From IMG/VR virus record IMGVR_UViG_2548876963_000010: 35,198 bases of DNA. One strand, 5' to 3'. Both the position numbers and the translations under genes were made by a program. Numbering within the stretch: the first letter of the stretch is position 1; the number at the start of each line of letters is the position of its first letter. The notes beneath the pieces were generated by a model. It was not told the DNA's origin. It made no database searches and saw only the letters and a program-made list of their open reading frames with translations. The DNA is from a virus. Lineage: Duplodnaviria; Heunggongvirae; Uroviricota; Caudoviricetes. Of this stretch, positions 25,703 to 27,210 are shown one piece after another.

Positions 25703-25790
25703 AGCATTAGCCTCTTTAATGTTGTGGTCAGAGGCCCGTTGGTGTTGGTAGCACCTGCGGGCTTCGTTCGTTTAAGGGTTGCAAAACATC

Positions 25791-25846
25791 ACGTAATTGC
25801 GATGTAATTACAACTACATCATTCTAAGGATTTTGTAATTACAATG
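25791..25846. promoter_or_regulatory. Candidate operator: two perfect 10-bp palindromes TGTAATTACA plus a degenerate third copy
   Basis: TGTAATTACA at 25803-25812 and 25834-25843 (the latter abuts the ATG at 25844); related cGTAATTgCg at 25791-25800. Confidence 0.6.
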
Positions 25847-26014
25847 TCAAGTGAAAAGGCTAAAACAGATCAGTACCAACTTCGTCTTGCTCATGAATTT
25901 AGAAAGCAGCTTGAAGAACAGGCTCGTAAAGATGGAGATACCTCTCTCGCAACATGGATAAAACGCGTTTTGCGTAAGGAACTTCAGTCACGAGGTATTG
26001 AACCCAAAGGATAA
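25844..26014 (+). CDS. Small ribbon-helix-helix (Arc/MetJ-like) DNA-binding protein, 56 aa
   Basis: Not in supplied ORF track (below its length cutoff); MSSEKAKTDQYQLRLAHEFRKQLEEQARKDGDTSLATWIKRVLRKELQSRGIEPKG: beta-strand then two helices as in Arc. Confidence 0.6.
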   Translation: MSSEKAKTDQYQLRLAHEFRKQLEEQARKDGDTSLATWIKRVLRKELQSRGIEPKG

Positions 26015-26115
26015 TTACGGAGATATCAAGCAGCGCTAAGAAGTTAGGATTATTTGTTCAGCCCAGATTAGTCGATATGCACTGATTAACTTAAACATTG
26101 TGTGTAGGAGGTGTT

Positions 26116-26769
26116 GTGGATATTGAATTTTTTCTTAAAGAGCGCACAAGATTCGTTACTTATTTCTATGAAACGGCTGCTGCACCATTTGTTAACATCA
26201 TGAATGATATTGAGAATGAAGTGGAACCTTATATTCAGCCGTATGGTGAGAGTGATGAACCAGCTTTTTTAGATGAATGGTTAGATGCAAAGTCGGGATT
26301 AGAAACCTGTGGGCACCATGCATTATCGATGCTTTCGTCTTCTCTTCAGTTGTACCTGAAGGCGTGGGTAGATCGCTTAGGATATCATAGCGTGAAATCT
26401 GATATAAATTTCAAGAAGGGTTGGTTTAATGGCTATCGTGAAATTTTCAACAAAATTGAGTTGGAAATGGCAAAATGTCCTGCAAATTTGGAAATAATTG
26501 AACAAATTCCCTTGGTGAGAAATCGTGTCCAGCATCCTGAGGAACTTACCTCAATTAATATTTCTCACTCAAAAAATGACTTGGAAAAATATCCTCGCCC
26601 ATACTTTATTCAGGAGTGTGAGCTACTTTTGGCTTCCGAACAGGAAGAAAAATCGTGGTTATTCCCACCTACAATATCCCCGACTAAAGAGAAAATATTC
26701 GAAGCTATCAGAAATGTTGAAATGCTGTGCTCTTGGTTAGAGTCTGAGTATTGGTCGGCTCTTGACTAA
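26116..26769 (+). CDS. Hypothetical protein (217 aa) with R-x4-H motif, possible HEPN-domain protein
   Basis: GTG start at 26116 with AGGAGG 6 nt upstream (ORF track lists 26098); AT-rich; motif VRNRVQHPEE (R-x4-H). Confidence 0.55.
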   Translation: MDIEFFLKERTRFVTYFYETAAAPFVNIMNDIENEVEPYIQPYGESDEPAFLDEWLDAKSGLETCGHHALSMLSSSLQLYLKAWVDRLGYHSVKSDINFKKGWFNGYREIFNKIELEMAKCPANLEIIEQIPLVRNRVQHPEELTSINISHSKNDLEKYPRPYFIQECELLLASEQEEKSWLFPPTISPTKEKIFEAIRNVEMLCSWLESEYWSALD

Positions 26770-26858
26770 ATGTAGAATAGAGTAAGTCAGCGTCAAATGA
26801 AAACAGCCCGACGAATCGGGCTATTATGGCTATCAGGCAAACACTACCTTCAAACTCA

Positions 26859-27095
26859 TTATGCCGCCTCAATACCCGCTCTGGTTAACATATAGTGGCC
26901 CCAGTGGGTTTTCTTCAGATAACCGGCCAGTTCCATCTGTGTCACAATAAATTCAGCGTTAACTATTTCTATATCTGCGTAGTCGGCCAGATCGCGCAGC
27001 GGCCATGTGCTGCGAACGCCGACGCTAACTATGGTATCTCTGATGCGGCGAGCGGTATCGGTCATTGGGCGGGTTCTGGCTGCCTGAATAGTCAT
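26859..27095 (-). CDS. Hypothetical small protein (78 aa), possible winged-helix DNA binding
   Basis: ATG at 27095 with GGGGAA upstream (listed ORF begins at a GTG at 27134); not part of canonical P2 L-X interval. Confidence 0.45.
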   Translation of the reverse strand: MTIQAARTRPMTDTARRIRDTIVSVGVRSTWPLRDLADYADIEIVNAEFIVTQMELAGYLKKTHWGHYMLTRAGIEAA

Positions 27096-27210
27096 GGTAT
27101 TTTCCCCTGTAAGTTCTTTCGTTGGGTCAGACACTAACTCTGGTGGGGAAGGGGCATCCAGCGTTCAGATGAGGCGATACGGTGATGCGCATCGCATATC
27201 CGTACTCTTT

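Follow-up and report, generated by a model that had tools for sequence, protein, structure and literature searches.

Defence hotspots of P2-like prophages have reportedly been described by Rousset et al. 2022. In its hotspot section, a 2026 paper (PMC13586616) counts 'downstream of GpL' among P2 defence hotspots, and such places are defined there by their core-gene neighbours together with systems known to DefenseFinder or PADLOC. Another prophage, Gifsy-1 of Salmonella, encodes HepS, a solo HEPN abortive-infection protein (PMC13043305). According to Anantharaman et al. [quoted passage not shown] The locus described here is the known P2-like accessory and defence hotspot downstream of gpL; like the hotspot of that name in the section of PMC13586616 cited above, it lies directly after gpL and takes variable cargo, including toxin-antitoxin and abortive-infection genes. 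With somewhat more confidence than doubt, we explain it as an insulated slot that holds an RHH-controlled switch and, as cargo, a solo HEPN protein.

The window, by which we mean the whole analysed stretch of 35,198 nucleotides, encodes gpX (24868–25071, Pfam Phage_tail_X, 2.3e-17) and gpL (27211–27678, Phage_GPL, 5.5e-45) on the minus strand. Whereas the two genes share 1 nt in P2 itself, 2,139 bp separate them here (25072–27210, as delimited by ORFs and Pfam). A first, sequence-only reading had described this interval as an AT-rich insertion with an RHH gene, a 217-aa gene and a small minus-strand gene. The interval is indeed an accessory insertion, the three genes were all confirmed by ORF calling, and the RHH and 217-aa genes are transcribed opposite to the late operon; two more minus-strand genes and an antisense RNA had been overlooked. 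The AT-richness applies to about 1.1 kb (GC 0.38–0.43 at about 25750–26850 versus 0.56–0.62 in the flanks) and not to the rest of the 2,139 bp, which includes two GC-normal minus-strand genes encoding a 68-aa Icd-like protein and a 106-aa protein.

Comparison with related prophages, proposed at the time as a check, showed that the slot is real and that its content varies at a fixed place after gpL. Four E. coli prophages are 97–98% identical to the window over its positions 1–9000 and 90–97% identical in the slot flanks, and their conserved frame proteins and those of the window are 86–100% identical. Similarity to these ~97%-identical prophages ends at 25737–25773 and resumes at 26856–26858. 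The AT-rich stretch coincides with the part that differs from the E. coli relatives, a swappable segment (about 25774–26857) with operators, RHH gene, 217-aa gene and terminator. In place of the 217-aa gene, the four E. coli prophages carry either Phd/Doc or a 177-aa gene plus RelE/HTH; at the loci L001, L002 and L049 and in the window, the cargo between these flanks differs. The exchange of cargo among near-identical phages points to a slot in active use. Neither megablast of the interval nor tblastn of the 217-aa protein found a match among 50,697 GenBank phage records, and the five interval proteins had no match in PADLOC-DB 2.0 at E ≤1, that is, no known defence system was detected.

The 217-aa cargo gene (26116–26769, plus strand) belongs to a family without annotation, and its product has a predicted HEPN fold. 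It starts with GTG after AGGAGG, and the resulting N-terminus (MDIEFF) agrees with that of its homologues. At 50% identity the family comprises at least 611 clusters, and it extends over Gammaproteobacteria, Thermodesulfovibrionia, prophages, and plasmids of Alpha-, Beta- and Gammaproteobacteria. The R-x4-H motif in VRNRVQH, on which the HEPN call had originally been based, is present at residues 134–140 (R135-N-R-V-Q-H140 encoded at 26518–26535, plus strand). Among 58 diverse members, 27–79% identical to the window protein, R135 is the sole invariant residue (100%), while H140 is conserved in 98% and N136 in 97% (otherwise D). In one sequence taken alone an R-x4-H would say little, but with this degree of conservation the motif is far beyond chance. 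The strong conservation of the N-terminal half of the family is unexplained by a simple RNase model.

Structure prediction, which had also been proposed as a check, yielded a four-helix bundle. In the AF2 model (pLDDT 87, pTM 0.85) the helices span residues 3–33, 52–87, 125–139 and 191–216, and helix 3 (125–139) has the motif at its C-terminal end, in agreement with the HEPN definition (PMC3710099). E54, at the start of helix 2 (52–87), is 95% conserved and is not in an Ex3[KR] context. The only recurrent matches in Pfam and PADLOC, all of them sub-threshold, were to HEPN families: HEPN_RiboL-PSP in Pfam (4 of 35 and 6 of 58 members; best 8.9e-4, below cut-off) and RTasHEPN in PADLOC (8 of 58 members; best 6.7e-4, covering residues about 107–220). 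One relative (P0152) is a fusion with an AbiU2 HEPN domain (5.9e-18) and another (P0179) has a second motif, RNTAMH; the motifs LRNMIAH and LRNALAH are encoded by genes next to relatives in Pseudomonas and in a prophage of an alphaproteobacterium. A significant sequence or profile match of the family to an established HEPN family was not found with Pfam, PADLOC, hhalign, PDB or Foldseek. PDB sequences searched with a profile of the aligned family gave nothing even at E 10, and Foldseek returned nothing significant among the BFVD viral structures and, in the PDB, a HEPN toxin as top match at a non-significant E of 0.26. With hhalign, the family profile reached a probability of 0.2 against a 25-sequence AbiU2 profile, and at most 0.4 when one AbiU2 domain and one RNTAMH domain were compared as well; the R residues align there, which is no evidence. 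The HEPN call thus stood as to fold, topology and conserved motif, and fell short in that no search was statistically significant; on the whole, the HEPN assignment of the 217-aa protein is largely borne out.

Among characterised proteins, HepS is a close parallel and a precedent for a solo HEPN defence protein on a prophage: each is a single prophage-encoded protein with a canonical Rx4-6H motif, without partner or inhibitor gene, in an accessory slot. HepT/MNT toxins (SO_3166, 5yep; HI0074, 1jog; 7ae2; 8xdj) differ in their adjacent MNT antitoxin and in the tyrosine of their RX4HXY motif, both missing here. Compared with these toxins and with DUF86 proteins (1ylm, 1wwp), the 217-aa protein is ~80 residues larger, has long inserts after helix 1 and between helices 2/3 and 3/4, and shows 6–10% identity and no significant profile match. 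AbiU2 (PF18734), RiboL-PSP-HEPN (PF18735) and the RT-associated HEPN of DRT (PADLOC PDLC03820) are the sole families to recur below threshold; the matches stay below the curated thresholds, and the window has neither a reverse transcriptase nor an L-PSP partner.

The protein might instead have a HEPN-like bundle and yet be no host-killing or host-arresting nuclease, acting as an RNA- or nucleotide-binding regulator, an anti-defence factor, or a factor against rivals or satellites without abortive infection. HEPN domains without catalysis are known (PMC3710099), the family lacks a significant match to a characterised HEPN RNase, and its close homologues (48–79% identity, from Gammaproteobacteria to Thermodesulfovibrionia) are unusually conserved, with many invariant residues outside the motif. 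However, HEPN families that lose catalysis usually lose Rx4-6H as well (PMC3710099), whereas here R, N/D and H are the best conserved positions. Moreover, Abi-type HEPN domains occur fused to relatives or next to them, and the neighbourhoods of homologues are rich in defence genes (SIR2, Gabija-like genes, restriction-modification and toxin-antitoxin genes). We consider a non-nuclease role unlikely, though it is the alternative that survives best.

As a solo HEPN cargo, the 217-aa protein would most likely be a homodimeric, metal-independent RNase with an R-N-x3-H site. It would serve as a stand-alone RNase-type abortive-infection or defence effector. Like HepS, it would have no dedicated protein antitoxin: in the lysogen it would be present at a low level and held inactive, until an infecting phage switches it on and growth stops (abortive infection).

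The proposed frame of the slot has two sides. On the L side, it would consist of a 78-aa gene followed by a terminator hairpin. The 78-aa gene (26859–27095, minus strand; phrog_331, 1.3e-6) is the last after L and belongs to the conserved frame; the E. coli relatives have a 95% identical product, annotated as a hypothetical protein of 78 aa, and the window protein would have 91 aa if translation started at GTG 27134. A terminator scan found a GC-rich, terminator-like hairpin with a T-run (26802–26825, minus strand) for the L/78-aa transcript, located between the convergent 217-aa and 78-aa genes. In L002, the HTH/RelE cargo is followed by a related piece of 60 nt.

On the X side, the frame would be formed by the leftward operon of the Icd-like and 106-aa genes and by an extra late-promoter palindrome at which transcription of X restarts. 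An inverted repeat of the late-promoter type, GCTTCCGCTTGTA-N11-TACAAGCGGAAGC (25137–25173, minus strand), lies upstream of X. Its core, TTGTA-N11-TACAA, occurs exactly four times in the window (15096, 21434, 25145 and 30344), a number reached in 0 of 100 shuffles, and the other three sites are at the expected positions of the F, V and O/P late promoters. This arrangement suggests that the palindrome upstream of X is an additional late promoter, dependent on an activator, by which X and the lysis genes are expressed again.

First in the leftward operon is the 68-aa Icd-like gene (25496–25702, minus strand; phrog_20855, 1.5e-45). Its product scored 24.1 bits against NCBIfam phage_ICD_like (cut-off 25, E 2.8e-5) and is weakly similar to a PGAP-annotated Icd-like protein. 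The second gene (25186–25506, minus strand; phrog_19484, 3e-59) encodes the 106-aa protein of the conserved frame, which is 86–98% identical in the E. coli relatives and adjoins RHH genes in 17 of 23 loci.

The start of the Icd-like gene is overlapped by a candidate cis-antisense RNA with two hairpins and a U-rich tail (25697–25775, plus strand). It begins 3 nt behind the start codon and covers both start codon and Shine-Dalgarno sequence; a candidate extended -10 element, TGTTACTAT, lies at 25681–25689 on the plus strand. At gathering thresholds, Rfam detected no family in the whole window. Below them, the SymR covariance model (RF01809) was matched at full length, 1–77, with 34.9 bits (E 2.3e-4 for 1.9 kb searched; the gathering score is 61). 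Across seventeen distinct loci, 98.9% of the cells of the RNA structure are paired, and five pairs show changes in both partners, a result that none of 500 shuffles matched. On the complement strand 80.7% of the cells pair (G.U pairs 66 versus 1), and the minimum free energy is -39.2 (z -5.8) on the plus and -20.3 (z -1.7) on the minus strand. In the c4-icd immunity control of phage P1, c4 and its target share one transcript. The gene under control is Icd-like here too, but the RNA is cis-antisense, unlike c4; a minus-strand, c4-like and same-sense reading was ruled out by the strand asymmetry, and no Rfam C4 match was found in the window. As in SymR/SymE, a short antisense RNA with two hairpins lies over the start codon and ribosome-binding site of a small gene that may be harmful; the target is SymE there and the Icd-like gene here, and the SymR score stays below the gathering score, as given above. 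The RNA would mask the ribosome-binding site of the Icd-like gene, in addition to control by the RHH protein.

The 56-aa RHH gene (25844–26014, plus strand) encodes an RHH protein of the Arc/YlcI-YnfO type, as first proposed, with matches to phrog_228 (Arc-like repressor, 3.5e-6), NCBIfam YlcI_YnfO_N (1.3e-3) and Pfam Arc (0.038). Homologues form 76 clusters in Enterobacterales. The E. coli YlcI/YnfO proteins of two islands (L040, L041) were rejected as close homologues (no BLASTP alignment; 19–20% identity with MAFFT); what these islands have in common with the window is limited to the RNA element and an Icd-like gene of weak similarity. A promoter scan and palindromes revealed a back-to-back promoter/operator region on both strands (25779–25850), in which a leftward promoter, TTGACA-18-TAGAAT (25850–25821, minus strand), came from the scan and a rightward one, TTGCAA-18-TGTAAT (25779–25808, plus strand), was read by eye. 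Two exact TGTAATTACA palindromes, 31 bp apart (25803–25812 and 25834–25843), are the only copies in the window. The same pair with the same spacing is found only at loci whose RHH protein is 84–86% identical, and other RHH variants have other paired palindromes at their loci. This co-variation argues for binding of the RHH protein to the palindromes. At the compared loci, the RHH gene is always divergent from the Icd-like/106-aa operon. We infer that the RHH protein is a repressor and autoregulator of the divergent promoters rather than an antitoxin: bound to the two TGTAATTACA palindromes, which overlap the back-to-back promoters, it would repress both the Icd-like operon and its own transcript. 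The 217-aa gene would ride on this transcript as cargo. The one pointer to such cotranscription is that neither a promoter nor a terminator was found between the two genes by the promoter and terminator scan.

Parts of this switch also occur in islands. An RHH homologue is divergent beside small genes in a Klebsiella integrase-AlpA-DUF927 island, another adjoins a Pectobacterium integrase together with a gene of the 106-aa type and the RNA element, and the RNA element is found beside Icd-like genes in E. coli integrase-DUF927 islands. Satellite-like islands share this switch with the prophage, which suggests a route for cargo between phages and satellites. Taken further, the RHH/antisense-RNA/Icd-like switch could be a satellite-type (PICI/P4-like) module that the helper phage has in common, operator specificity included, with satellites of the same hosts, that allows cross-regulation of helper and satellite by RHH proteins of matching specificity and that serves as a landing pad for defence cargo, a proposal we consider distinctly unlikely. 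If it were true, early genes of a satellite entering the cell could be shut off by the prophage, the strong leftward promoter toward X and the lysis genes could become the target of a satellite, and defence cargo such as the solo HEPN family would shuttle between phage and satellite.

The same islands, together with the foreign GC content of the cargo, would also fit a recombination scar, in which the control region of a PICI/P4-type satellite was captured and the 217-aa gene is a passenger without selected role. But all ORFs of the interval are intact, the frame proteins are conserved among the four E. coli prophages and the window to the degree given above, a terminator and a late-promoter element belong to the slot itself, and cargo is swapped among near-identical phages. 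A mere scar is, in our judgement, very unlikely.

The RHH and 217-aa genes had originally been read as a possible toxin-antitoxin or abortive-infection module. With an RHH gene ahead of a gene for a putative RNase on the same strand, the arrangement recalls many toxin-antitoxin operons; no promoter or terminator was found between the two, and phages of this lineage often have toxin-antitoxin pairs (Phd/Doc, RelE/HTH, HicAB) as cargo. However, the genes are not kept together across genomes. RHH homologues (77–86% identity) occur without a co-oriented downstream gene, more than 20 loci have an RHH homologue without the 217-aa cargo, and in Kosakonia AbiTii lies behind RHH genes. In the prophages ~97% identical to the window, RHH variants are followed by Phd/Doc or by other cargo; one and the same Phd/Doc pair, which has its own antitoxin, is found downstream of two different RHH variants. 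Conversely, five other contexts hold a 217-aa homologue (61–77% identity) with no co-oriented RHH gene beside it; homologue contexts include defence or mobile islands and a Vibrio prophage, and in one island (L012) a 47% identical RHH gene lies ~1.6 kb off on the opposite strand. In Pseudomonas, the homologue context is an array of small same-strand genes. The RHH protein consists of the RHH core only, lacking a variable C-terminal tail for toxin binding; its C-terminus of ~10 residues, RKELQSRGIEPKG, is conserved whatever the cargo. The two genes are separated by a gap of 101 nt, and the operators change along with the RHH variant and the Icd-like side. A search of the interval for tandem repeats found none, and therefore there is no ToxI-like type III antitoxin array. 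It is very unlikely, and the least credible of the alternatives, that the two genes form a dedicated pair, either a type II toxin-antitoxin system or a two-gene abortive-infection system, with the RHH protein neutralising a HEPN toxin and autoregulating the operon.

The position of the hotspot was already known; the conserved frame and the 217-aa cargo family do not appear in the hotspot Results section of PMC13586616. For an insulated slot with RHH switch and solo HEPN cargo, the anatomy described here would explain how P2-type phages tolerate foreign, opposed genes inside an essential late operon, because a terminator lies on one side, an extra late promoter on the other and a repressor-controlled divergent promoter between them. 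It also cautions that a small RHH gene upstream of a putative toxin is not always an antitoxin. If active, the 217-aa protein would be the second case, after HepS, of a HEPN nuclease that is silent without an antitoxin, and as an active solo HEPN effector its family would represent a widespread defence gene missed by current detection tools.

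The late genes of the P2-like prophage lie on the minus strand, where gpX (24868-25071, Pfam 2.3e-17) and gpL (27211-27678, Pfam 5.5e-45) are separated by 2,139 bp, versus a one-base overlap of L and X in P2 itself. All three genes that the sequence-only reading had placed in this gap were found: a 56-aa ribbon-helix-helix (RHH) gene (25844-26014, plus strand), a 217-aa gene (26116-26769, plus strand; GTG start with AGGAGG upstream, supported by an N-terminus, MDIEFF, that agrees with homologues) and a small minus-strand gene of 78 aa (26859-27095/27134). The gap had also been described as an AT-rich insertion, which is true of about 25750-26850 only (GC 0.38-0.43, against 0.56-0.62 in the flanks). 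Its left part is GC-normal and carries two further minus-strand genes that had been overlooked: a 68-aa gene (25496-25702), borderline for NCBIfam "Icd-like" (24.1 bits versus a cut-off of 25), and an overlapping 106-aa gene without assigned function (25186-25506).

The X-L interval is a hotspot in which a conserved frame surrounds swappable cargo. The contig itself is also recorded in a JGI sample as well as in IMG/VR. A related prophage occurs in 4 of 5,426 complete E. coli genomes (compared over window 1-9000; identity 97-98%, coverage 100%, 96%, 66% and 66%). The similarity of these relatives to the window ends at 25737-25773 and restarts at 26856-26858. The slot holds an RHH gene with Phd-like/Doc in GMF054, an RHH gene with a 177-aa gene and RelE/HTH in L725, and a third RHH variant followed by the same Phd/Doc pair as GMF054 in 24A16CRGN010. 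The interval is a real accessory insertion, as first observed. Its position was already known as a hotspot: a 2026 paper that surveyed 1,511 P2-like prophages places 16% of P2 defence systems in one located "downstream of GpL" (PMC13586616).

Variability was also seen elsewhere. Two of the four relatives cover only 66% of window 1-9000, which points to a further variable region close to the integrase; this left end is 98% identical to GMF054, where the annotated products are, among others, a toprim-domain protein, an integrase, DUF6037 and a nucleoid-associated protein. A second accessory slot at about 21495-22090 (minus strand), preceded by an AT-rich region, holds a HicA/HicB toxin-antitoxin pair between gpS and gpV; the pair is also seen at 1380-1975 of L003. 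The terminator region 3' of the 217-aa gene (26797-26856) is 82% identical to 3004-3062 of the L725 locus, where it follows unrelated HTH/RelE cargo, and may represent a shared cassette boundary.

The proposed pairing of the RHH protein with the 217-aa protein as its toxin is not supported: the cargo was found without the RHH gene, and the RHH gene with other cargo or none. Five other settings have a homologue of the 217-aa protein but no RHH gene beside it in the same orientation. These are a chromosomal array in Pseudomonas, a Vibrio prophage, and islands in Raoultella, in Aeromonas (together with SIR2, SocA and DpnII) and in Pectobacterium (an integrase island with Gabija-like genes, in which the other strand carries a 47% RHH match at a distance of about 1.6 kb). 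In the Pseudomonas array (P. chengduensis and metagenomes, 6001-9905 of L004-L009), the homologue opens a series of small genes, five to six in number, that share one strand and have short spacers and unassigned function. The layout resembles integron cassettes, and the 6 kb around it showed no integrase.

The 106-aa frame protein as query retrieved 23 loci, 17 of which had an RHH homologue (40-86% identical) divergent from and adjoining the 106-aa gene. Downstream of the 86% identical Pectobacterium RHH gene there is only a convergent integrase gene; the Erwinia RHH gene faces HipBA, that of Klebsiella belongs to an integrase-AlpA-AntA-DUF927 satellite-like island, and another P2-like contig has it again beside X, a 106-aa gene and a 62-aa gene. 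Kosakonia carries two RHH genes, then a 102-aa gene and AbiTii (3.8e-45). In this K. arachidis locus (L018, 3956-5761) the tandem RHH genes are different variants, AbiTii is PF18864, and GNAT/DUF1778-like and RelE-like pairs lie nearby, forming a dense addiction/defence islet on the RHH/106-aa frame. The Icd-like/106-aa pair accompanies the RHH gene both in P2-like prophages and at integrase-adjacent sites, and remnants of the group are found on the chromosomes of Leminorella, Kosakonia, Pectobacterium, Brenneria and Symbiopectobacterium.

The intergenic region of the window contains a near-consensus leftward promoter (TTGACA-18-TAGAAT) and a rightward one read by eye (TTGCAA-18-TGTAAT). Two exact TGTAATTACA palindromes, the only copies in the window, lie 31 bp apart; they recur at equal spacing only in loci whose RHH is 84-86% identical, and loci with other RHH variants have different paired palindromes. 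Across the RHH alignment the N-terminal strand is variable and the C-terminus is kept regardless of cargo. Because the palindromes co-vary with the RHH variant, we infer that the RHH protein represses through them; it would be the slot's switch and not an antitoxin.

Searches of Pfam, NCBIfam, PADLOC and PDB sequences gave the 217-aa protein no match that passed the threshold; it belongs to PHROG 28203, a group without assigned function. It has 226 close homologues (identity 48-79%) from Gammaproteobacteria to Thermodesulfovibrionia; an exhaustive profile search with 50% clustering gave 611 family representatives, nearly all of 210-240 aa. Among 58 members (27-79% identical to the window protein), R135 is the sole invariant residue (100%), and H140 (98%), N136 (97%, D otherwise) and E54 (95%) are nearly so. 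AlphaFold2 predicted a confident, all-helical bundle (pLDDT 87, pTM 0.85; helices 3-33, 52-87, 125-139 and 191-216), whose third long helix terminates in the R-N-R-V-Q-H motif. The HEPN definition places the motif at that same helix-3 end, with a polar residue following R; it also has helix 2 carry an acidic residue and an insert separate that helix from helix 3 (PMC3710099).

When each member was scanned on its own, only two families recurred among the sub-threshold matches: Pfam HEPN_RiboL-PSP (4 of 35 and 6 of 58 members) and PADLOC RTasHEPN (8 of 58, colinear over residues ~107-220, motif included). Fusions occur in three relatives: P0152 is joined to an AbiU2 HEPN domain (5.9e-18), P0179 to a region bearing a second motif, RNTAMH, and P0193 to a weak GIY-YIG match. 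Genes adjoining family members in two unrelated contexts, Pseudomonas and an alphaproteobacterial prophage (L004 6757-7302, L046 4258-4998), encode LRNMIAH and LRNALAH, which follow the classical HEPN motif LRNxxAH. Some members may therefore function as pairs of two different HEPN domains. No comparison of the family to HEPN reached statistical significance: hhalign failed to match it to an AbiU2 profile, and Foldseek with the model gave E 0.26. Weighing the supporting evidence against this, we consider a HEPN fold with a catalytic-type site likely and a role as RNase-type defence effector an even prospect. The earlier interpretation is partly supported, in that its HEPN-like part holds. The protein is new and unannotated; on this reading it joins two kinds already known, the HEPN superfamily and the cargo of the P2 hotspot.

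The Rfam SymR model matched end to end at 25697-25775 (plus strand) with 34.9 bits and, for the 1.9 kb searched, E 2.3e-4; the gathering score, 61, was not reached. This element starts 3 nt behind the Icd-like start codon and spans that gene's Shine-Dalgarno sequence and start codon. In pairing statistics over 17 distinct loci, 98.9% of cells were paired on the plus strand versus 80.7% on the complement, with 66 versus 1 G.U pairs. The MFE was -39.2 kcal/mol on the plus strand versus -20.3 on the minus strand, with z-scores of -5.8 versus -1.7, so that the strand asymmetry is strong. The second, terminator-like hairpin shows both-sided change in five pairs, and the observed covariation score was matched by none of 500 shuffles. 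The element is also present at L001, L002, L017-L039 and two E. coli islands (L040, L041); 45-48 nt of it occur at ~92% identity, unannotated, in ~20 E. coli genomes, and the two copies inspected are each part of an integrase-DUF927 island, flanked there by YlcI/YnfO and Icd-like genes. It is a candidate structured, SymR-like cis-antisense RNA; together with the Icd-like gene it comes closest, within this interval, to a toxin-antitoxin arrangement.

On the late-operon strand, a hairpin with T-run follows the 78-aa gene (26825-26802), and GCTTCCGCTTGTA-N11-TACAAGCGGAAGC lies between the 106-aa gene and X (25137-25173, minus strand). Its core, TTGTA-N11-TACAA, has exactly four copies in the window (four matches in 0 of 100 shuffles), the others at the expected late promoters of the sheath operon (F; 15096-15116), V (21434-21454) and O/P (30344-30364). 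This implies that the copy upstream of X would be an extra late promoter re-starting the operon beyond the inserted slot. The P2 "O operon" would then consist of two units, O-N-M-L-78aa and X-Y-K..., and late promoters would number five, which would explain the tolerance of foreign, oppositely transcribed genes.

In the mechanism we propose, the RHH protein would repress both back-to-back promoters, the 217-aa gene would be co-transcribed at low level in lysogens, and its product, a putative dimeric, metal-independent RNase, would remain latent until triggered by an infecting phage. HepS, which lacks any partner gene and shows no toxicity on overexpression, provides a precedent for such latency (PMC13043305). 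Part of the interest of the slot lies in the size of the unannotated 217-aa family, and in a frame of switch and putative antisense RNA that it has in common with satellite-like islands.
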